This document shows positions 1 to 9,573 of a DNA stretch of 9,573 nucleotides, in pieces; within the stretch, counting starts at the first letter, position 1; each line of letters starts with the position of its first letter. Location: IMG/VR virus record IMGVR_UViG_2617270962_000004, positions 1-9,573 of that record; one strand, written 5' to 3'. Made by a program: the position numbers and the translations under genes. The stretch is from a virus. Lineage: Duplodnaviria > Heunggongvirae > Uroviricota > Caudoviricetes. The notes beneath the pieces were generated by a model, which ran no database searches, was not told the origin of the DNA, and saw only the letters and a list, made by a program, of their open reading frames with translations.

Positions 1-13
1 GTAATTTCATCAT
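1..13 (-). CDS. 5' end of the next early-operon gene (partial, continues beyond window start)
   Basis: On the minus strand GGGGG lies about 7 nt upstream of an ATG at 13..11 (reads ATG ATG AAA TTA ...), directly after the TGA stop (19..17) of the upstream ORF. Only 4 codons are visible. Confidence 0.25.
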
Positions 14-16
14 GCA

Positions 17-532
17 TCACCCCCTGACTCGCTTTTCAGCAGCATAAAACTCATCAGACAGTATTTCGGTCATTTTCTGTTTTGCGGGTTTTACGCCGCA
101 CTGAAGGTAAATCACATCGTCAACGCAGAACCACTTCACAGGGCCAAACAGGATTGCCGAGAAATCAATACCCAGCCAGAACAACAGCGCATCGGTTCTG
201 GCATACGTGACGGGCGAATATTCACGCCACAGACTGTTCAGTTCATCAGAGGCAACACGCAGGGTTTTAGGGATACGTGATGTGCGCGGTGTGCAGCTCC
301 AGCCATTCGACGCAGTCGGTTTTCGCCATAAGTCGCGATGAAAAGGATATTTGTCCTCCGTAAAACGCAGTCCCTTAAAGCAAAATCCACTGATACCGGA
401 TACAAATACCGACCGGCACGCAACATTCAGCACGGCCTCAAGGCGTTTTGCCTCATCCTTAACTTTCTGGCAGTCCTGCTGGTATTTTTGCCACGCAGCC
501 AGCGCGGAAGGGTTTGATGTTTTAAAGAACAT
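17..532 (-). CDS. hypothetical prophage early-region protein (171 aa)
   Basis: Intact ORF in the same orientation as the early operon. Its ATG (532..530) overlaps the TAA stop of the upstream gene by one base (TAATG), suggesting translational coupling. I recognise no family from the sequence. Confidence 0.6.
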   Translation of the reverse strand: MFFKTSNPSALAAWQKYQQDCQKVKDEAKRLEAVLNVACRSVFVSGISGFCFKGLRFTEDKYPFHRDLWRKPTASNGWSCTPRTSRIPKTLRVASDELNSLWREYSPVTYARTDALLFWLGIDFSAILFGPVKWFCVDDVIYLQCGVKPAKQKMTEILSDEFYAAEKRVRG

Positions 533-1065
533 TACGCCACCTCCGCAGATATCCCGGCAGGCGCTGCTGTCCGGTCAACAATCAGGTAGCGCAGAACATG
601 TTCAGTGATATTCCAGCCGCTTAAACCGCAGATAATGACGCCCAGGCGTATGTCGATATACGCCATCACAAACTGGGGCACGCCTTCTTTCATGGCCTGC
701 TCATCAACTTCAGCCACCACATAAACGGTTTCACAGGTCAGAACGCCCTGAGCAAATTCCCACGCCATCGACGGAATATCATGCCCCTCAATCCATGGCA
801 GGGATTTTCTGAAGCTGCACCACTGAACATCATCAGCCGCAGATTCCTGGCTGCATTTGCGACGAACCGGCTGCACCGGGCGGGGGCGCGGAATATCATA
901 AAAACCGTTACATTCCGTCAGCACGCCTGCATCAACCGCATCACGCAGAAAATAAACCATGGAGGATGGCGGCATATTCATTTTTTCAGCCAGTACACCG
1001 CAGGTCAGGCGGCCATAAATACGCAGCCAGTTTTTAACCCCTTCAAGCACTTTTGCATCAATCAT
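532..1065 (-). CDS. hypothetical prophage early-region protein (177 aa), N-terminal region possibly winged-helix-like
   Basis: ORF with ATG at 1065..1063 preceded by GGGG (rc of 1075-1078). Co-oriented with the early operon; the stop overlaps the next start. The fold suggestion is an impression only. Confidence 0.6.
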   Translation of the reverse strand: MIDAKVLEGVKNWLRIYGRLTCGVLAEKMNMPPSSMVYFLRDAVDAGVLTECNGFYDIPRPRPVQPVRRKCSQESAADDVQWCSFRKSLPWIEGHDIPSMAWEFAQGVLTCETVYVVAEVDEQAMKEGVPQFVMAYIDIRLGVIICGLSGWNITEHVLRYLIVDRTAAPAGISAEVA

Positions 1066-1210
1066 GATTTATTTCCCCACCACATTATTAATGACGATAT
1101 AAACGTATTTCATATTTCTTAACCCTTATTTTCTGTTTTCAGGCGCAAGCAGTCCCCTGACGCGAGCGCCATAATTAAAATGAAGTGATATTTAATTGAT
1201 TAATGCGGTG

Positions 1211-1741
1211 TTATTTATTCAGTCCGGCGTCCTGTTCAAAAGGCTCGACATAAAAACTTTCAGCGCCTTTATTCACCTTGATACCGGCAATGCCTTTCAC
1301 AGCATCCGGCTCCGCCAGGACGGCTTCCTTGTTCACTTCCTCTTTCGTGCGGATGAAACGCTCAAGCCCCATACGGCGCAGCATTTCAATCACACCTTCC
1401 ACATCACGGCTGACGCTGCATGATGGCGTTCCCAGCCGCCATGACACCGTTCCGGTGGTCAGATTGGCTGTTTTGGTTTTGCCGCCGTTCGTCAGCTCAT
1501 CACGGTTGGTTTTGCACCAGTCCTGAATCCCTTTAAAAAGCACTTTGATTTGCTTTTTAAGATTTTCAATCTGCGGCGTATAACGGGCGGTGATTTCTGC
1601 CACTTCGTCATTCATCGCCGTTTCCAGGCGTAGCGCCTCTCGCTGAATATCTCCCAGGGTGCGGATATCACGGCTGACTTCTTCCCGGGTCTGCGGTGCC
1701 GCCTCGGCTGCGGCCTTTAATTTTGTAACGCGTTTAGCCAT
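1211..1741 (-). CDS. gam: Gam-like host-nuclease inhibitor (Mu Gam / Ku-like DNA-end-binding protein)
   Basis: 176-aa translation contains ...NRDELTNGGKTKTANLTTGTVSWRLGTPSCSVS...LGLERFIRTKEEVNKEAVLAEPDAVKGIAGIKV...PFEQDAGL, which matches my recollection of phage Mu Gam (about 174 aa) along its whole length. RBS AAGGA is 8-9 nt upstream of the ATG at 1741. Confidence 0.85.
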   Translation of the reverse strand: MAKRVTKLKAAAEAAPQTREEVSRDIRTLGDIQREALRLETAMNDEVAEITARYTPQIENLKKQIKVLFKGIQDWCKTNRDELTNGGKTKTANLTTGTVSWRLGTPSCSVSRDVEGVIEMLRRMGLERFIRTKEEVNKEAVLAEPDAVKGIAGIKVNKGAESFYVEPFEQDAGLNK

Positions 1742-1752
1742 TTTGTTTTTCC

Positions 1753-2046
1753 TTATTGCAGTGTGCCTGATGCTTTATGCACGCGGTGGCGTTTAATGAT
1801 GGCATCCGCTCCAAAAGACTGTGCAGATGCCTGAAATTCCGCTGAGAGAAACTGAATAATTGCAGGACTGTGATACTGGAGAATACTTGCATAAACGTCA
1901 CAGAGTGACGTCGGCCTGTTATCCGTATCACGTTCTGTTTTCACATCCACTCCAATCTTTTCATGCACTTCAACACAGTCATTGCCTGCCAACTTTTCGT
2001 CATGCGAAACATGATTAAATTCAAAAATAACGCGTACTTTGCTCAT
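1753..2046 (-). CDS. small hypothetical protein (97 aa), member of a duplicated family in the early region
   Basis: The ORF track extends it to 2073, but the internal ATG at 2046..2044 has a good RBS (AGGGG 7 nt upstream) and gives an N-terminus MSKVRVIFEFNH that parallels MSKVVRIIFEYKEH of the adjacent gene. The 3' end lies 12 nt from the gam start. Confidence 0.5.
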   Translation of the reverse strand: MSKVRVIFEFNHVSHDEKLAGNDCVEVHEKIGVDVKTERDTDNRPTSLCDVYASILQYHSPAIIQFLSAEFQASAQSFGADAIIKRHRVHKASGTLQ

Positions 2047-2050
2047 GGAA

Positions 2051-2323
2051 TTACCCCTGTTGATTAAATTCATTACCGTTAATAACCCCGGAAGTCATGC
2101 CTCTGTCTTTCATGAATGCACTGGCTTTCATTGCCACAAACTCTGCGAAGTTTCTGCTTTCTGCCAGCATAACCACCCCAAAAATCATGGCGGGTCCATT
2201 ATCTTTCTTCTTTATTCCGGTTGAACGTATGTCCAGACTTACCCCCATGCGCACTGTTCCATCAGCGTTTTTATGGATAACGTGCTCCTTATATTCGAAA
2301 ATAATGCGTACGACTTTACTCAT
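2051..2323 (-). CDS. small hypothetical protein (90 aa), paralogue of the 1753..2046 product
   Basis: ATG at 2323..2321 overlaps the TGA stop of the upstream gene (ATGA). RBS GAGG/ACGAGGA lies upstream. The N-terminus MSKVVRIIFEYKEH is shared with the neighbouring gene at both protein and nucleotide level. Confidence 0.55.
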   Translation of the reverse strand: MSKVVRIIFEYKEHVIHKNADGTVRMGVSLDIRSTGIKKKDNGPAMIFGVVMLAESRNFAEFVAMKASAFMKDRGMTSGVINGNEFNQQG

Positions 2324-2601
2324 CCTCTGGTCCTCGTTCTGTTTGGATAACTGACCCGGCGTCTAACCTCACGGCAGAACCGAATCATGGCATTAAAGGC
2401 TTCTTCCTCCGTCACCGCTTCCGGTATCCCCGGAACCAGTAACTGCTCCTGTTCATCACGTCCATGACGCGCCATAACCTCAATCACATGCCGTACCGTG
2501 GCAGGCTTTCCGGCAACTATCGGCAATGCACCTTCCGGCAGGACGTAACCAAACTCAATAAGACCACTCGACCACGCCCATGCAATGAGATTTTTTTTCA
2601 C
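2320..2601 (-). CDS. hypothetical prophage early-region protein (93 aa)
   Basis: ORF with GTG start at 2601..2599 preceded by a strong RBS GGGAGGTG. Translationally coupled to the downstream gene through an ATGA overlap. No recognisable motif. Confidence 0.5.
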   Translation of the reverse strand: MKKNLIAWAWSSGLIEFGYVLPEGALPIVAGKPATVRHVIEVMARHGRDEQEQLLVPGIPEAVTEEEAFNAMIRFCREVRRRVSYPNRTRTRG

Positions 2602-2602
2602 C

Positions 2603-2857
2603 TCACACCTCCCAGTAAACCGTGCAGCCGCTGATGCGGGTGGCCTTCACACGGCGGCGCAGGCCGTTGGTCTGTATGGTGATTTCAATTTCACCGGTTC
2701 CCTGCACGTTGCCTACCGGCGGCGTGGTTTTCAGTGCAAAACGTTGCGGATAGCGCTTACTGCGTTCCAGTACCGCACCGGCAAGTTCGGTCAGACGGCG
2801 CGCGCTGTTCAGGGAGTCGAATAAATTCATTTTGTTACCGCAGGATTGCATATTCAT
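2603..2857 (-). CDS. hypothetical prophage early-region protein (84 aa)
   Basis: ATG at 2857..2855 with RBS GAGGTG 5-6 nt upstream. The stop lies 1 nt before the next gene's start codon. No recognisable motif. Confidence 0.5.
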   Translation of the reverse strand: MNMQSCGNKMNLFDSLNSARRLTELAGAVLERSKRYPQRFALKTTPPVGNVQGTGEIEITIQTNGLRRRVKATRISGCTVYWEV

Positions 2858-2869
2858 ATAACACCTCGT

Positions 2870-3091
2870 TTAGCTGATTCGTTTTGCACCGATAAAACGA
2901 CAAATATTGCTGTAAGCTTCTTTCGCACCTTCACGATCAAGTCCGGCAGATATCACCATTCTGGTGCGATCATTAAATTCAAAAAGTAAATCGCCACATT
3001 CTTTATTTTCGGACACGGAGACTGCTTTGACGTTATCGAAATTCACCAGGTGAAAGCGTCCGTAAATATCAGGAATATTAAATGCAATCAT
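2870..3091 (-). CDS. small protein directly downstream of B (73 aa from ATG 3091; 75 aa if GTG 3097), in the position of Mu kil; function unproven
   Basis: ORF overlapping the end of the MuB-like gene. The ATG at 3091..3089 has RBS AGGTG 7 nt upstream. It contains an internal LLFEFNDRT segment resembling the N-termini of the two MSKV proteins. The Kil assignment rests on gene order only. Confidence 0.45.
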   Translation of the reverse strand: MIAFNIPDIYGRFHLVNFDNVKAVSVSENKECGDLLFEFNDRTRMVISAGLDREGAKEAYSNICRFIGAKRIS

Positions 3092-3093
3092 AA

Positions 3094-4026
3094 TCACACC
3101 TGTGAGAGTAATTCAGGGTTGGTATAAACCTCTTTAAAGGCCGCATTAATATGTTTTTCTGTCAGCGCCGCGCCTTCACCACTGGCGGTGATCCATGCCT
3201 GGTTAAGCGTATGTGTCAGAACGCGTAACGCTCCCGGCTTTTCAGCGATAGCCTGCATGACGGCCAGCTCGGCCTCACCACTGATCCCCCACGCCATGGC
3301 AATGGCCAGCACATCCGCCTTTTTGGCCTTGCGAAGTTGTTTTGTACGGGCAAGACGGCTGAACAGGCGCGATAAATCATCAAAGGCGCGGCGTCCACCT
3401 TTAAACAATCCGCGCGGGTTACCAATAAGCACCATCCCGATCCCCGTGGCGTCCTGGATTGCCCGGAGTTGCTCCAGACCGTCAATACCAAGATGATCCG
3501 CCTCATCCACAATCACCAGTCCACGCGTTCCCATCAGGCGACGGCGGATGGCGCGGGATAATGCCCCTTTGTTCGCGCGGGTGTAATCAATCCCCAGCGC
3601 ATCGGCCAGCTCCAGCAGACACTCCGTGACGCTGGAGTGCGCGGGTGACAGGGTGATCATCCAGGTGTTTGGTTGCTCCTGGCAGTAATTACGGGCAGTG
3701 GCCGTTTTACCCACACCCGGTACGCCCACAATAACGTTAATACAGCCCATCAGGCGAACCGCCTGAAACAGTGCGCGCAGCTCCTGGACTGTCTGAGTTT
3801 CCACAAACTGCGGCGGTTCCGGCAGTGCGCTTTGTTTATTCCAGTTCTCATACCAGGAGCGCAGGGAAGCAGCCACAGCAGCGTTATCGCCTTTATATTT
3901 TCCCTTACGGAAAGCCGATAATGTGCCGTCGGAAATCCCCGCCTCTCTGGCGATGGCATACTGCGTCAGTACGCCGCCATCAATAAGTTCATCAATGGTC
4001 TTGATTACATCGTTAATATCGGTCAT
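3094..4026 (-). CDS. B: MuB-like ATP-dependent target DNA activator (AAA+ ATPase)
   Basis: Translation contains a Walker A motif (VGVPGVGKTATARNY) and a Walker B-like motif (LVIVDEADHL). It aligns along its length with my recollection of phage Mu B (for example LPEPPQFVETQTV, KPGALRVL). Size 310-313 aa versus 312 for MuB. I prefer the ATG at 4026 (RBS GAGGTG 8 nt upstream) over the GTG at 4035 used by the ORF track. Confidence 0.9.
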   Translation of the reverse strand: MTDINDVIKTIDELIDGGVLTQYAIAREAGISDGTLSAFRKGKYKGDNAAVAASLRSWYENWNKQSALPEPPQFVETQTVQELRALFQAVRLMGCINVIVGVPGVGKTATARNYCQEQPNTWMITLSPAHSSVTECLLELADALGIDYTRANKGALSRAIRRRLMGTRGLVIVDEADHLGIDGLEQLRAIQDATGIGMVLIGNPRGLFKGGRRAFDDLSRLFSRLARTKQLRKAKKADVLAIAMAWGISGEAELAVMQAIAEKPGALRVLTHTLNQAWITASGEGAALTEKHINAAFKEVYTNPELLSQV

Positions 4027-4108
4027 ATTATTCACCTCGCTTGAGACAGCATTCTCCGAGACTGAAACCTCAAATAACCTGAGTCACCCCTCGGGTTATT
4101 TTTTTATT

Positions 4109-6199
4109 TCAGGCCAGCGGATCACTTTCTTTTAATTTCGCTTCGAGCAGTTGCAATCCCCGCTGGAAATTACGCTCGTATTCTTCATCAGGTTCATCGT
4201 CAGCGACAGGTTGCTGAACGGTCACCGTATTACCCACAGGGCGGTAGATGTTTTCCAGCCAGGGCTCCTGCGGCTTGTGCTCCAGCACGTTGACAACCTC
4301 ATCCTCGGCATCACGGATTTTTTCCTCTGCGCGTTTACGCATACCTTTAAGGCGCTGCTGCTGTTTGTAGTATTCCGCGCTGACAGGGAAGGCTTCGCGT
4401 TTATTGCCGTCCCATACCGCCTCGCAAATCACGCTGCCATCCGGGCGGCGCACGGTAATTCGTTCGGCATCATGAATGTCATAGCTGATAAGTACCTTAC
4501 GGCCATGCTCGTCACGCAGCTCGGGCGCGTAGTAAATATTATTCAGCCAGCGTATTTCACAGCGTCTTACAGGGCGCTCCACCATCGGCCGGAACATATC
4601 CCGCAGTTCAACATCGGACAGCCATTCAATTTCCGTGTCCTCTTCCGCCAGGCGTTTTTTTCTGAACTCCGCCGGGCTGTAATGTTTACCGTTCGGCTTC
4701 ATGGGTAATTCATCGTGCGGCCGGTTGTTGTACCACTCAACACCGTCACGAATGGCATCAATCAGTTCAGACCAGGACGGTAAATCACGCATCGCTGACT
4801 GCTGCCGGGCGTTCAGCCGTTTGCCCTGTTGCAGGGCACTGAATGCCGAGCGTAAATCGCGGTTGGTTTTACGTAACGTCTCGCGATCTGCTCCTTTCCC
4901 GAAATAGGTGCGGTATTTACGGGCTATGCGCATCGGTAATGTGCGGTTAAGCCGTTCGATAATGCCCCGTCCCTGCGGATTACCGGCAATCCCTGTCGGG
5001 TGATTAATCCCCAGTCGTGGCAGTATCCCCACAATCTCCTTATCCAGGACGTCGGCGGTTTCCCCGGAGCCATTATCCGAGTAATACAGAAACGGTTTGC
5101 CATGATGGCGAATACCGTGCTGTATGGCACCGGCTACGGCGAAAACATTTTCAGCCAGGTCAAGGCTCCAGCCCACCACAAAGCGCGTGCCACCGTCGAT
5201 AACAAAGGTCACTTCCGGTGCGAATGGCCGCCCGTGAACCGGGTGCGCGCATTTCAGCTTCATGCCGTGACCGTCACCAATCCAGACATAATTCACCGGC
5301 ATTTTTGACCAGTCGCGGCGCGTGAATCCCTCAAGCTGGCGGTATTCACTGCCAGTTACCCGGCCTTTTTGTTTCACCACTTCCGGCAGTTTCTTCATTG
5401 CGCGGCGAATGGTGTCATAAGAGGGCATGATATCGAGCATATAAGGCTCATCAGCGTGCCGGTGCTGCCATTCAGCAACAAAATCCTCGTAAGCCTCGGT
5501 CATTGGTCGGCCGTTTGACTGGCGATACTGCGCCAGAAATTCGGGCAGCCAGTTAATATCTTCGGCTTTTATTTCCTGGCGTTTACCCGGTGCCAGTAAA
5601 AGCAGGCGTTCAGCGGCGTTCTGTGCCTTGTTAAAGGCCGCAATCCAGCGTTTCAGCGTGATTTCACTCAACGCACGGCTGTTTCCCTTTTTGGCGTTCG
5701 CCGTCTCAACCATTGCCACAATGCGCTCGTCCAGTTGCGAACGTGCCAGGTTGTCAACGATAAACCGGATAGCCTTCGCACAGCTGAAACCAGGTTGTTG
5801 CGCGACTTTCAGAACTTCGCTGACGATCGCGATTCGTGCATCAGCCACCTGGCGCTGGTTTTCAGTCAGGGCATTGAGGCGTTCGAGCATCAGTTGTGGT
5901 GATCCGCGATATGCCTCCACCGCATCAACCACGGCAGATGAGCGTCTGGCCTTTGTCACCACCGGAGCCGGTGATTCATCAGCTTTTTGCGTCATCAGTT
6001 GAAGGGCATAACGTTCACGCAATACTTGTTGCGCGCCAGAAGGCAAACAATCGATATTAAATTCGATTGCTTTTGTCCCCTTACGTTTGCGTAACATGGC
6101 TGCATTTCCCGCAGCTGCTTTTGTGAGTCGATGGCGAATGTTATGTTCCATCATTGGTAAATCAGGAAGACCAACACATTCTTTTGCTGTTACCCACAT
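4109..6199 (-). CDS. A: MuA-like DDE transposase (transposable-phage transposase A)
   Basis: 696-aa ORF. The N-terminus MWVTAKECVGLPDLP...GTKAIEFNIDCLP resembles the MuA N-terminal DNA-binding domain (Mu: MELWVSPKECANLPGLP...GKAIEY). Size (Mu A is 663 aa) and position between ner-like and B-like genes fit. RBS GGGGGA lies 4-5 nt upstream of the ATG. Confidence 0.92.
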   Translation of the reverse strand: MWVTAKECVGLPDLPMMEHNIRHRLTKAAAGNAAMLRKRKGTKAIEFNIDCLPSGAQQVLRERYALQLMTQKADESPAPVVTKARRSSAVVDAVEAYRGSPQLMLERLNALTENQRQVADARIAIVSEVLKVAQQPGFSCAKAIRFIVDNLARSQLDERIVAMVETANAKKGNSRALSEITLKRWIAAFNKAQNAAERLLLLAPGKRQEIKAEDINWLPEFLAQYRQSNGRPMTEAYEDFVAEWQHRHADEPYMLDIMPSYDTIRRAMKKLPEVVKQKGRVTGSEYRQLEGFTRRDWSKMPVNYVWIGDGHGMKLKCAHPVHGRPFAPEVTFVIDGGTRFVVGWSLDLAENVFAVAGAIQHGIRHHGKPFLYYSDNGSGETADVLDKEIVGILPRLGINHPTGIAGNPQGRGIIERLNRTLPMRIARKYRTYFGKGADRETLRKTNRDLRSAFSALQQGKRLNARQQSAMRDLPSWSELIDAIRDGVEWYNNRPHDELPMKPNGKHYSPAEFRKKRLAEEDTEIEWLSDVELRDMFRPMVERPVRRCEIRWLNNIYYAPELRDEHGRKVLISYDIHDAERITVRRPDGSVICEAVWDGNKREAFPVSAEYYKQQQRLKGMRKRAEEKIRDAEDEVVNVLEHKPQEPWLENIYRPVGNTVTVQQPVADDEPDEEYERNFQRGLQLLEAKLKESDPLA

Positions 6200-6209
6200 A
6201 CATCCCCCA

Positions 6210-6476
6210 TCAAGCCACTTCTCTGGCGTCCACCTGGTATCTGCTGGGCCAGATTACAGCAGGTTCAACCCCTATTTTTTCGGCGATGGCGGCTTCGTAT
6301 TTACGGCACTGGCGGTAAAACACATTGCGCATTGATCCGCTTTTTAATCCTAACTCCCTTTCCAGTTCAGGGAGGTCTGTGCCTTTGTTTTCAAGGGCTG
6401 CATATACCGCTTTAGCAGACCAGTCACACCCCTCTCGAACAAACAAATTATTCGATGCTTGTCTGGATACCCTCAT
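6210..6476 (-). CDS. ner: Ner-like DNA-binding regulator (Ner/Nlp family)
   Basis: The C-terminal motif PAVIWPSRYQ matches the conserved end of Mu Ner and E. coli Nlp (PEVIWPSRY). It is the first gene of the early operon, directly upstream of the transposase. Confidence 0.8.
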   Translation of the reverse strand: MRVSRQASNNLFVREGCDWSAKAVYAALENKGTDLPELERELGLKSGSMRNVFYRQCRKYEAAIAEKIGVEPAVIWPSRYQVDAREVA

Positions 6477-6632
6477 TGTGTGATCCTCTCATGTTTACCT
6501 GAACCGATAATCAAAACCGGTTATCGATTTAGGTAAATCATAATCGCAAAATAATTCGATATCAACGGTTTTTTGCGAGCATATCGAAATTAAATGCGAT
6601 GTCGATAATTTCTTTGTTTTATAGGGGGTTAT
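6477..6632. promoter_or_regulatory. divergent promoter/operator region between the ner-like gene and the repressor gene
   Basis: 156-bp AT-rich intergenic region between divergently transcribed genes. It holds at least five copies of the hexamer TCGATA / TATCGA in alternating orientation (about 6505, 6522, 6556, 6582, 6602) and the palindrome AACCGGTT (6515-6522). Exact -35/-10 elements could not be assigned confidently by eye. Confidence 0.6.
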
Positions 6633-7244
6633 ATGGATAAGGCAGAAAAAACCGTATCCAGTGCGGAACGGTTTATTGATATGGAAGGAATAAACCGATT
6701 TTCAGAACGCTTAGCTATGGCTATGGGAAACATGACAAACGTCGAACTGGCGACCCTTTGTGGACTATCTGAAGCCACAGTAAGAAATTACAGGAAGGGG
6801 AAAAACTTCCCTCCTTTGGATAAACTGGCCTTAATAGCTAAAGCCTGTAATTGTTCACTCGACTGGTTGGCCACAGGCAAGAACGAAGATGAATGCGGAA
6901 AAATCGGAAAAAATTGCGATTCAGGTTCGGGTATTGATCAGGCGCTTAGCTCTCTAAGCCCCCAAGAGAAGCAATTAATCCTTACATTCATCAGGCGAGA
7001 AGGTACTAACAACCTTGTCAGGCTGGCAGCAATGAATACATCTACAATCAGCCAGGATGCGGTAGAAAGCATCATTGATGCCTTGCCATTACGTCCCGTA
7101 CTAAAAAATGCAATAAAGATAGGAATGGCGGGAAGTGAAGAAACAGACAAAGAGATTTTGCGCGTTATTGAGAAGTACAACTCGAGCAATAACGCCACCC
7201 AGGAATCAGGGGCAGTGACAGTAAAGAAAAATGTTGTTGGTTAA
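6633..7244 (+). CDS. prophage repressor, HTH XRE (Cro/C1)-type, 203 aa, functional analogue of Mu c
   Basis: Strong RBS AGGGGG 5 nt upstream of the ATG. Residues about 36-80 (NVELATLCGLSEATVRNYRKGKNFPPLDKLALIAKACNCSLDWLATG) form a typical XRE-family helix-turn-helix. It is transcribed divergently from ner/A/B towards the prophage end, as c is in Mu. I see no LexA-like S24 peptidase motif. Confidence 0.75.
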   Translation: MDKAEKTVSSAERFIDMEGINRFSERLAMAMGNMTNVELATLCGLSEATVRNYRKGKNFPPLDKLALIAKACNCSLDWLATGKNEDECGKIGKNCDSGSGIDQALSSLSPQEKQLILTFIRREGTNNLVRLAAMNTSTISQDAVESIIDALPLRPVLKNAIKIGMAGSEETDKEILRVIEKYNSSNNATQESGAVTVKKNVVG

Positions 7245-7416
7245 GCGCCATCGCTATCATGAGGTGGTGCTGTAAATACATATAGAGATCATATGACTCA
7301 TCCCAAGATAATCACGCTATTGAATAGTAATTCATGATGATTATCATACTGATTATAGTTAGATCGATTATGTGAGCATTTTGGCAGTTTGAAGATGTTT
7401 TGAAGAAGATTTTAAG

Positions 7417-7600
7417 GGTAAATTAGCAGTATCAAATGTGCCGCCGTTTTTTGATCTTTTGACTATTTGTTGAGCAGTCGGTATCAAAAAGAGTTTTCCG
7501 TCCGAAGTATACATCACCTGTTTTATTTCAGCATCTTACAGGTGATTTCACCTCCTTTCACTAAAACCCTTGTCGGTATCAAATGATTCACCTGGTTACA
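7417..7600. repeat. prophage terminus (attL-like) with three direct repeats of a putative transposase end-binding motif
   Basis: Direct repeats AGTATCAAATG (7428-7438), GGTATCAAAAA (7480-7490) and GGTATCAAATG (7575-7585). The element ends ...GGTTACA at 7600, so the other strand reads 5'-TGTAACC..., the 5'-TG terminus typical of Mu-like elements. The exact end is uncertain by a few bp. Confidence 0.55.
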
Positions 7601-8930
7601 CCCATGCGTCTTGATCGACAGAAGTTTTATAATGTGCATCGTTATAATCTACGATGCTGTCCGCGCTGTACGCTTTGCTGGCCTGGAAACCATCCGCAAC
7701 AATGACGCCGCCGTTATCAATTTCACAGGTAGTCGGGTTACCGTACTGACTCAATTCCGCAGCGGTAGCTGTACGCTCGAGACGCCATGGGTTATTGGAG
7801 TTTTCAGCGCTGGTACCCCGTGGGCAATCTTTAGACCCAACCCACCAGGCGTTCTTGTAAACATTACCATTGAAAATAACATGGTAAATTTCGCTACCTT
7901 CCTGGCCGCTCCACGCTTGCAATGAGTAATCGTTAACGCTATCCGCTGGTGTTGATGGCTCGCTGTTATCCGGAGTTGGGGTCACCGGTGTTTCCGGAGT
8001 TGGATCAACCGGAGTCACAGCACCGCCATTATTATCCGGCTTAACGGAACAGGAGCCAGGGTTACCATACTGGCTGATTTCTGTTGCCGTTGCCGCGCGA
8101 ACATAACGCCATGGGTTACTGGCATCGTTTTCTTTCGCATCGCCTGGGCAATTTGCCGCGCCTACCCACCAGGCGTTCTTATAAATGCCGCCGTTATAGA
8201 TAACGTACCATGTAGAAGAACCTTCCTGACCTTTCCAGGCTACTACAGCATAGTTGTCGTTTGACTTATCAGCTGGGGCTGGCTGAACATCAGGAGCCGG
8301 TTTAACGTCCGGTGCCGGTTTCACATCCGGTGAAGGCTGTGGTGCTGAAGTACAGGACTGTGGATTACTGGTTTCTGAGATTTCCGTTGCCGTAGCGGCA
8401 CGAACATAACGCCATGGGTTGCTGGCATCATTGCTTTTCGCATCACCCGGACAGTTAGAAGAGGCTACCCACCAGGCATTTTTATATACCGCACCATTAA
8501 AGACGACATACCAGGTCTGACCGCCCTGCTGTTTATTCCAGGCAACTACAGAAGAATTAGACGGAACAGTGCCCTGTGCTGGTGTAGCCGAACCGCCATT
8601 AGCCGGCGTATTGGATGCAGGCGTATTTGAATTTGAAGAAGATGAGCTGCCGCTCTTTTCGCAGGAAAGTGTATTGCCAAACTGACTAATTTCAGCAGCT
8701 GTTGCGGTACGCTTTAAACGCCACGGGTTAGTTGCATCATTTGCTTTCGCTTTTCCCGGGCAATTTGTAGAAGAAACCCACCAGGCATTTTCATAAATTT
8801 TGCCATCGAAAATAACCTGATATTTATTACCACCTTGTTGGTTATTCCATGCTTCCATTGCCAATGCTGGCAGAGCGGAACACACCAGCCCCATACCAAT
8901 CATAGATTTAGTAAATATATTTAATTTCAT
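7596..8930 (-). CDS. chiA: periplasmic endochitinase ChiA, 5' fragment (signal peptide plus four chitin-binding modules, 444 codons), truncated by the prophage insertion
   Basis: N-terminus MKLNIFTKSMIGMGLVCSALPALA is a signal peptide. Four about 65-aa modules repeat with the pattern AW...Y.V.FNG..Y.NAWWV...CPG...NPWR...TA.EIS, separated by S/T/P-rich linkers. RBS AAGGGA precedes the ATG. The last codon (GTG) and the TAA stop are supplied by the prophage end. E. coli ChiA is about 897 aa as I recall, so the catalytic domain is missing here. Confidence 0.85.
   Translation of the reverse strand: MKLNIFTKSMIGMGLVCSALPALAMEAWNNQQGGNKYQVIFDGKIYENAWWVSSTNCPGKAKANDATNPWRLKRTATAAEISQFGNTLSCEKSGSSSSSNSNTPASNTPANGGSATPAQGTVPSNSSVVAWNKQQGGQTWYVVFNGAVYKNAWWVASSNCPGDAKSNDASNPWRYVRAATATEISETSNPQSCTSAPQPSPDVKPAPDVKPAPDVQPAPADKSNDNYAVVAWKGQEGSSTWYVIYNGGIYKNAWWVGAANCPGDAKENDASNPWRYVRAATATEISQYGNPGSCSVKPDNNGGAVTPVDPTPETPVTPTPDNSEPSTPADSVNDYSLQAWSGQEGSEIYHVIFNGNVYKNAWWVGSKDCPRGTSAENSNNPWRLERTATAAELSQYGNPTTCEIDNGGVIVADGFQASKAYSADSIVDYNDAHYKTSVDQDAWV
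8277..8330 (-). repeat. in-frame 18-bp tandem repeat (3 units) encoding the linker PDVKPA PDVKPA PDVQPA within chiA
   Basis: Minus-strand units CCGGATGTGAAACCGGCA / CCGGACGTTAAACCGGCT / CCTGATGTTCAGCCAGCC, read directly from the sequence. Confidence 0.5.
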
Positions 8931-9170
8931 TATAATCCCTTGTGACGTAAAAACTGCAAAACAAAAGTCCTACGCAGGAATTATTTACGTTTTACGAGAA
9001 CCCTTCAATATGAATTAAAGTGCGGCATTAAAAATAAGAAAAAAGCCTGACAAATGAAGAATTTTAAAAACAGAAACATTCATATTTAAAATGTTAAATT
9101 GAATTGATATTTTAAATATGAATAATTTATTCGTTCTGACAGTACGAATAAGATATGCCGTCAACAAATG
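8931..9170 (-). promoter_or_regulatory. AT-rich chiA upstream region (promoter region, elements not individually assigned)
   Basis: 240-bp strongly AT-rich stretch between the tufA terminator and the chiA start. Contains a perfect 8-bp inverted repeat TTATTCGT-N9-ACGAATAA (9127-9151). Confidence 0.35.
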
Positions 9171-9197
9171 CAAAAAGGGCGCCGAAGCGCCCTTTTC
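9171..9197 (-). terminator. Rho-independent terminator of tufA (structurally bidirectional)
   Basis: CAAAAA-GGGCGC-CGAA-GCGCCC-TTTTC: a perfect 6-bp GC stem with a 4-nt loop. On the minus strand the stem is followed by TTTTTG, 25 nt after the tufA stop; the A-run on one side and T-run on the other allow termination in either direction. Confidence 0.8.
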
Positions 9198-9221
9198 AAT
9201 TCAAAACTAATTAACGTGTAA

Positions 9222-9573
<352 letters not shown>

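Follow-up and report, generated by a model that had tools for sequence, protein, structure and literature searches.

The window analysed here, a stretch of 9,573 nucleotides filed as the viral record IMGVR_UViG_2617270962_000004, is the whole of the 9573-bp draft contig JNMI01000074.1 (assembly GCA_000700265.1) and joins the left arm of a Mu-like prophage to a piece of Escherichia coli chromosome (Table 1). At the joint lies an open reading frame (ORF) of 444 codons, which is very probably the 5' remnant of the ordinary chromosomal chitinase gene chiA (yheB), in a K-12-type allele, cut by the prophage. The remnant keeps a signal peptide and four repeated modules. These modules belong to the family of the N-terminal domain of Chi2 from the Yersinia entomophaga toxin complex (YenTc), and their number differs among natural chiA alleles.

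The first 1330 nucleotides of the ORF are identical to chiA of K-12 MG1655 and of strain CP53, in which the intact gene comprises 2694 nt and encodes 897 aa, and the first difference from the full-length CP53 gene falls at nucleotide 1331 of the coding sequence. The first-pass annotation, which had read the ORF as a truncated chiA, is borne out by this comparison. Codons 1–443 and the first base of codon 444 come from chiA. The prophage supplies the other two bases of that codon (GTG, Val) and the stop: its terminal TG completes the Val codon, and TAA, its next three bases, ends the frame. Positions 7601–9573 of the window match many E. coli chromosomes with an intact 2694-nt chiA beside tuf at 100% identity. 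Relative to MG1655, three differences are found over these 1973 bp, all of them intergenic (9020, 9022 and 9060) and none in the coding sequence. Near-identity to chiA and the place directly downstream of tufA assign the ORF to the E. coli chiA (yheB) locus. K-12 ChiA (YheB, b3338), a periplasmic/secreted endochitinase-lysozyme of 897 aa, shares with the remnant its signal peptide, modules, linkers and location downstream of tufA; the remnant differs from it in lacking residues 444–897 and in the three upstream substitutions.

On the other side of the joint, positions 1–7600 match, with 96–98% DNA identity, Mu-like prophages located elsewhere in the chromosomes of 248 genomes, and among the matches listed the prophage homology stops exactly at base 7600. 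Related Mu-like prophages occupy up to 4 places per genome, and the element of the window appears in two phage records, LC727881 and LC727895, annotated as an inserted 'Bacteriophage Mu-like phage'. With a query laid across the junction, matches to E. coli chromosomes begin only at 7601, are 100% identical and run over chiA and tuf annotations; among 5426 complete E. coli genomes no listed match crosses the chiA–prophage junction, the best matches starting at 7601. Three NCBI assemblies (GCA_000700265.1, GCA_000700625.1 and GCA_000700645.1) and an independent Logan assembly of run SRR1186646 share the identical junction, which is not an assembly accident.

The element is identified as a Mu-like transposable prophage by its MuA, MuB, Ner/repressor and Gam gene set, with Gam, Kil and Mu Gp12 family proteins called further in on the same contig, and by a defined 5'-TG terminus accompanied by repeated sites. 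The minus strand of the prophage end has the sequence 5'-TGTAACCAGGTGAATCATTTGATACCGAC, starting with TGTAACC. A dodecamer, TTTGATACCGAC, occurs exactly at 7572–7583 and again about 95 bp further in, at 7477–7488, and a degenerate copy lies at 7425–7436. This spacing resembles that of the L1/L2/L3 transposase-binding sites of Mu, and the copies seen here may likewise bind the transposase. Mu inserts at a target with the consensus N-Y-(G/C)-R-N, which is fitted by the pentamer CCCAT adjoining the prophage end. The prophage inserted after nucleotide 1330 of chiA (codon 443/444), and the remaining binding domains and the GH18 domain would now lie beyond it, outside the window. Known cases of gene disruption by phage Mu and Mu-like prophages share with this one the MuA/MuB/Ner/repressor set, the TG terminus, the repeated terminal sites, insertion into a coding region and a consensus-fitting pentamer; they differ in that only the left end is in view here. 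Disruption of chiA by a prophage is an ordinary event of an already known kind, and the remnant is probably an ordinary insertional pseudogene of recent origin.

What the insertion left behind is the front half of the gene. The signal peptide (MKLNIFTKSMIGMGLVCSALPALA, then MEAW), retained as the first-pass annotation had stated, combines two Lys in its n-region with a hydrophobic core and an A-L-A motif of the cleavage type, features read from the sequence and its hydropathy; by its n/h/c regions and AxA site the product would count as Sec-exported. In homologues from other genera the module begins right after the equivalent A-x-A. The ORF does encode 444 aa, but the exported product was given at that length, whereas the processed protein would measure about 420 aa, about 45 kDa, with a pI of 4.7. 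Four modules were likewise correctly called; all four are complete, with 50–73% amino acid identity in pairwise comparison. The description of the product as made only of such modules does not hold: three long, low-complexity Ser/Pro/Thr linkers lie between them, and they are followed by an incomplete fifth, CBM5/12-like domain that had been missed. This fifth domain gives a sub-threshold match to CBM_5_12 (profile positions 2–34 of 44); its C-terminal end (GFVPGGDNPW...) was cut away by the insertion and about three quarters of it remain.

The catalytic part is gone, in agreement with the earlier reading. In the full-length 897-aa protein of a strain with identical DNA, Pfam places CBM_5_12 (best stretch at residues 461–494) and GH18 (609–805), with the catalytic DFDIE sequence at residue 696, all of it past the insertion point. 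Residues 444–897, absent from the remnant, hold the rest of binding domain 5, the whole of domains 6 and 7, and GH18. A Pfam scan finds no GH18 in the 444-aa product, and since this domain with its DxDxE motif is missing, the remnant is not a chitinase. In an exact-sequence cluster look-up neither the 444-aa nor the 897-aa protein was in the collection, and a first protein search returned no 897-aa cluster and gave length variants instead.

The family to which the modules belong is not apparent from standard domain models. Pfam and NCBIfam scans of the 444-aa product give no family for them, the Pfam model CBM_5_12 (PF02839) does not match them in the whole ORF or singly even at E ≤ 10, and an hhalign comparison with ChiA's own canonical CBM5/12 domain yields a non-significant probability of 3.4%. 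When a profile of the modules is compared with all PDB sequences, the sole significant relative is the N-terminal domain of YenTc Chi2 (E = 2.3e-24). An AlphaFold model of module 4, built on a 20-sequence alignment, has a pLDDT of 88.8, and Foldseek of this model against PDB returns Chi2 (9c4k_C) as the top hit, with a TM-score of 0.79 and 42% identity. By profile and by structure, the modules are members of a Chi2 N-terminal-domain-like family (YenTc Chi2 residues 24–93; PDB 6ogd/9c4k chain C) with a predicted CBM5/12-like core, and each module shares this sequence family with the Chi2 domain.

In YenTc, the single Chi2 N-terminal domain docks the chitinase onto YenA1 through a protein–protein contact (PMC12705794). 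ChiA, a secreted enzyme, differs in having four copies of the domain. In the module alignment, toxin-linked homologues (from Xenorhabdus and others) have neither the Cys pair nor the first Trp of an AWW motif, whereas modules of the ChiA type conserve both; Chi2 itself has NTYW at the position aligned to AWW. The predicted module fold resembles that of CBM5/12 chitin-binding domains, although no significant sequence or profile match links the modules to this group (for example Streptomyces griseus ChiC ChBD 2d49, Serratia ChiB CBM5, Pyrococcus ChBD1 2rts), and they add a C-terminal helix and the conserved Cys pair, which may form a disulfide. Carbohydrate binding by the modules is plausible by analogy, because the conserved AWW sits where CBM5/12 domains carry an aromatic pair.

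The modules have already been described under another name. E. coli ChiA is reported to contain seven chitin-binding domains, of which domains 1–4 are the modules, and the 'pathogenic' polymorphisms of adherent-invasive E. coli (AIEC) fall in domain 4 and change how whole ChiA binds CHI3L1 and mucin (PMC11486038). Module 4 of the window corresponds to what papers on AIEC call 'chitin-binding domain 4'. Residue numbering of this domain in the literature is shifted by +3 relative to the present allele, which would fit a 9-nt linker insertion: other alleles carry an extra ETP (9 nt) in the linker between modules 3 and 4, for example proteins P0011 and P0046, and in many genomes the 5' region measures 1339 bp rather than 1330 bp.

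The first-pass annotation had the promoter retained, and the whole upstream intergenic region is indeed present, with the tufA terminator (9198->9171) and an AT-rich stretch at about 8950–9174 (23–27% GC), in which the chiA promoter presumably lies; a Shine-Dalgarno-like AGGGA precedes the chiA ATG. A promoter-consensus scan found 7 sites against 3.9 +/- 2.1 in shuffles, not above expectation, so retention of the putative promoter rests on the intact upstream region. The variant at 9020/9022/9060 falls in the presumed H-NS-bound promoter region and is common to many strains with intact chiA. Were the remnant transcribed, its product would be a Sec-exported, acidic, non-enzymatic protein of about 45 kDa whose C-terminus is ragged and partly unfolded. 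Since H-NS is reported to silence chiA and its Gsp secretion system in K-12 (PMC5797941), the most likely reading is a pseudogene fragment that is silent or weakly expressed and serves no selected function. Reported silencing also comes close to what the first-pass annotation itself had named as grounds for rejecting its idea of a lectin-like product, namely a transcriptionally silent locus. In the 356 bp that separate the repressor stop from the prophage end no terminator-like site was found, and antisense read-through from the repressor gene into the remnant is possible.

Several observations weigh against regarding the ORF as a mere pseudogene fragment. With the ORF, its ribosome-binding site and all of the upstream region undamaged, the sequence holds no bar to expression, and the coding part carries no further mutation relative to K-12. 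In AIEC, ChiA is expressed and matters for host interaction (PMC11486038); silencing is not universal. The window stops short of the right prophage end and the 3' half of chiA, and with them of any 5-bp target duplication.

Alternatively, the remnant could be a functional new gene, kept by selection and encoding an exported, catalytically dead multi-module lectin or adhesin that binds chitin, mucin or CHI3L1-type glycans and either serves as an adhesin or competes with glycan-binding proteins. This is improbable. Promoter region, ribosome-binding site, signal peptide and all four modules are free of secondary mutations, but a recent insertion predicts the same. The modelled resemblance of the modules to CBM5/12 would suit a glycan-binding product, as would the reported effect of module 4 polymorphisms on binding to CHI3L1 and mucin (PMC11486038), yet the allele present here is of the K-12, 'non-pathogenic' type, for which H-NS silencing of chiA is reported (PMC5797941). 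The allele is found in at least three assemblies; these have neighbouring accession numbers and may be close relatives, and it is absent among the matches listed for the 5426 complete genomes. Mu-type insertion is close to random, and the truncation falls within a domain and leaves a ragged C-terminus, unlike a selected domain boundary; the type II secretion signal may also have been lost. It is very doubtful that the truncation created an expressed, Sec-exported, catalytically dead four-module protein that binds glycans or proteins and changes the adhesion of this lineage or blocks ligands.

The array of modules is repetitive at the DNA level as well. Four in-register copies of about 180 nt (7752–7931, 8076–8255, 8379–8558 and 8688–8867) are 60–74% identical to a reference copy, and in pairwise comparison the modules, of about 64 aa each, share 57–70% of their nucleotides. 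The long internal repeats pointed out previously are real but diverged, the longest exact run shared between modules being the 20 nt AACCCATGGCGTTATGTTCG of modules 2 and 3, which overlaps the motif CGCCATGGGTT singled out in the first-pass annotation. The motif CGCCATGGGTTRYTGG occurs exactly at 7783, 8107 and 8410, close to the positions given before (7786, 8107 and 8411), with a diverged copy of three mismatches, CGCCACGGGTTAGTTG, near 8718; its chance expectation is 0.04, and none of 200 shuffles reached three copies. The 18-bp tandem repeat in the module 2–module 3 linker stands exactly where it had been reported and consists of three units (8313–8330, PDVKPA; 8295–8312, PDVKPA; 8277–8294, PDVQPA), of which Tandem Repeats Finder recovers 2.6 copies of period 18 at 8286–8332.

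These internal repeats are substrates for recombination and slippage, and a comparison of chiA alleles, the check proposed earlier, shows that both module number and linker number vary. Strain ETEC1746 has an otherwise intact ChiA of 796 aa with a clean 303-bp deletion, the crossover lying inside AACCCATGGCGTTATGTTCG of modules 2/3 and therefore inside the repeat that overlaps CGCCATGGGTT; the same junction is found in Shigella dysenteriae and S. boydii proteins and, within E. coli, also on a different allele background. Three-module alleles of other types have their crossover at AWWV (P0049) and at VVAW (P0048), which together with the NPWRYVR junction makes three distinct in-frame module deletions of 303 bp. 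Where measured, the crossovers fall at exact microhomologies of 13–20 nt. At NCBI the 796-aa three-module proteins are labelled 'carbohydrate-binding protein', despite their retained GH18. Linkers of four units are found in strain 14EC029 (chiA of 2712 nt, 903 aa) and, by a variant-specific probe, in 16 complete genomes; those of two units occur in P0046, in strain 1105 and in at most 29 complete genomes.

The predicted copy-number variation is thus found, in linkers of two, three and four units and in the three module deletions, but each of these variant classes is rare, at about 1% or less of complete genomes. Counts of three-module and two-unit alleles are upper bounds or come from variant-specific probes, since coverage statistics are confounded by the joining of neighbouring pieces. 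The chiA 5' region is matched in 3161 of the 5426 complete genomes, and the module 2–module 3 linker in 3122 of these 3161.

A reversed direction of change, in which the three-module alleles are ancestral, the four-module form arose by duplication and the variation reflects gain, is very unlikely. Homologues with a single module, in Citrobacter, Chimaeribacter and others, do indicate that amplification happened at some point. Yet three different chimeric junctions of modules 2/3 each remove exactly 303 nt, the flanks of three-module alleles are otherwise typical of four-module alleles, and three-module alleles have nothing that corresponds to the unique module 2–module 3 linker, which at least ~99% of chiA-positive complete genomes contain. 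These junctions, flanks and the distribution of the linker point to several independent deletions.

ChiA homologues of Citrobacter, Chimaeribacter and other relatives (P0022, P0024, P0026 and P0029–P0036) contain a single module, compared with three or four in E. coli and Shigella, and the module array looks like a lineage-specific amplification. Some of the single-module homologues add C-terminal ricin-type lectin domains. Where the two can be aligned, P0027, the UniProt entry 'Endochitinase 11, Metarhizium anisopliae' (CHI11_METAN, 522 aa), shares 82% identity with E. coli ChiA, which suggests that a bacterial sequence was entered under a fungal name. P0010, a 410-aa split chiA on a metagenome contig of ~4x coverage, was not used, as a sequencing error is possible.

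Mobile elements seem to disrupt chiA often. In other strains it carries IS1 insertions (two cases), an IS1-linked deletion that also takes bfd, bfr and part of the gsp operon, and an IS21-adjacent truncation. Its 5' region is unmatched in 2265 of the 5426 complete genomes.

The chromosomal part of the window preserves the order tufA–chiA as in K-12 (Table 1), and an Rfam scan of the window gives no matches. A 52-aa ORF at 9015–9173 on the minus strand, called as a gene in public assemblies, has no family match, lies in intergenic sequence of 23–27% GC and looks like an annotation artefact. One end of the contig lies inside tufA, which has the paralogue tufB, and the other inside the prophage; repeats are probably what interrupted the assembly, and further copies of the Mu-like phage may be present in the strain. 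A 9.6-kb draft contig that ends in two such repeats could in principle be a chimera, with chiA really intact, but this is exceedingly improbable, as the junction recurs in the three NCBI assemblies and the independent Logan assembly, breaks exactly at a prophage terminus (TG...) common to many other insertions and adjoins five base pairs that fit the Mu target consensus.

Table 1. Features of the window, with strand where assigned; positions in the last four rows refer to the loci named.
Feature	Position	Strand	Remark
Mu-like prophage left arm	1-7600		
MuB-type ATPase	3094-4035	-	Pfam
MuA-type transposase	4109-6199	-	Pfam
Ner-like helix-turn-helix protein	6210-6476	-	Pfam
CI-type helix-turn-helix repressor-like gene	6633-7244	+	Pfam; converges on the chiA remnant
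Prophage left terminal region	7245..7600	-	homology breakpoints 7600/7601
Truncated chiA ORF	7596..8930	-	ATG start, 444 codons and TAA stop
Presumptive 5-bp Mu target site, CCCAT (+ strand)	7601..7605		adjoins the prophage end
Fifth domain, incomplete (aa 417-443)	7602..7682	-	sub-threshold CBM_5_12 match
Module 4, aa 339-402	7725..7916	-	K-12-type residues
Second imperfect tandem repeat, period ~24, module 3-module 4 Pro/Thr linker	7964..8012	-	
Module 3, aa 231-294	8049..8240	-	
20-nt exact repeat, module 3 copy	8098..8117	-	
Three tandem 18-bp units, module 2-module 3 linker	8277..8330	-	
Module 2, aa 130-193	8352..8543	-	
20-nt exact repeat, module 2 copy	8401..8420	-	crossover site of the 303-bp deletion
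Module 1, aa 27-90	8661..8852	-	
Signal peptide, codons 1-24	8859..8930	-	hydropathy
tufA-chiA intergenic region, intact	8931..9221	-	
tufA (EF-Tu) 3' end	9222..9573	-	chromosomal order tufA-chiA, K-12-like
chiA disruption locus L009	1620-2317		
chiA disruption locus L010	2681-3378		
chiA disruption locus L014	1788-2485		
chiA disruption locus L007	1-1458		

Overall, the anatomy given in the first-pass annotation and its copy-number prediction stand, and its product made only of binding modules does not. For annotation, the ORF is best labelled a chiA pseudogene fragment interrupted by a Mu-like prophage, and not a 'carbohydrate-binding protein'. Were the truncated product made and selected after all, this would be a case of neofunctionalisation by truncation, with altered sticking to chitin, mucus or CHI3L1-bearing host cells. 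Domains 1–4 of E. coli ChiA, which figure in the literature on AIEC and Crohn's disease, are kin to the docking domain of a toxin-complex chitinase, and no Pfam model covers them. The number of modules and linker units in natural chiA varies through short-homology recombination; the resulting insertions and deletions shift residue numbering and could affect the ChiA-based typing of 'pathogenic' polymorphisms.

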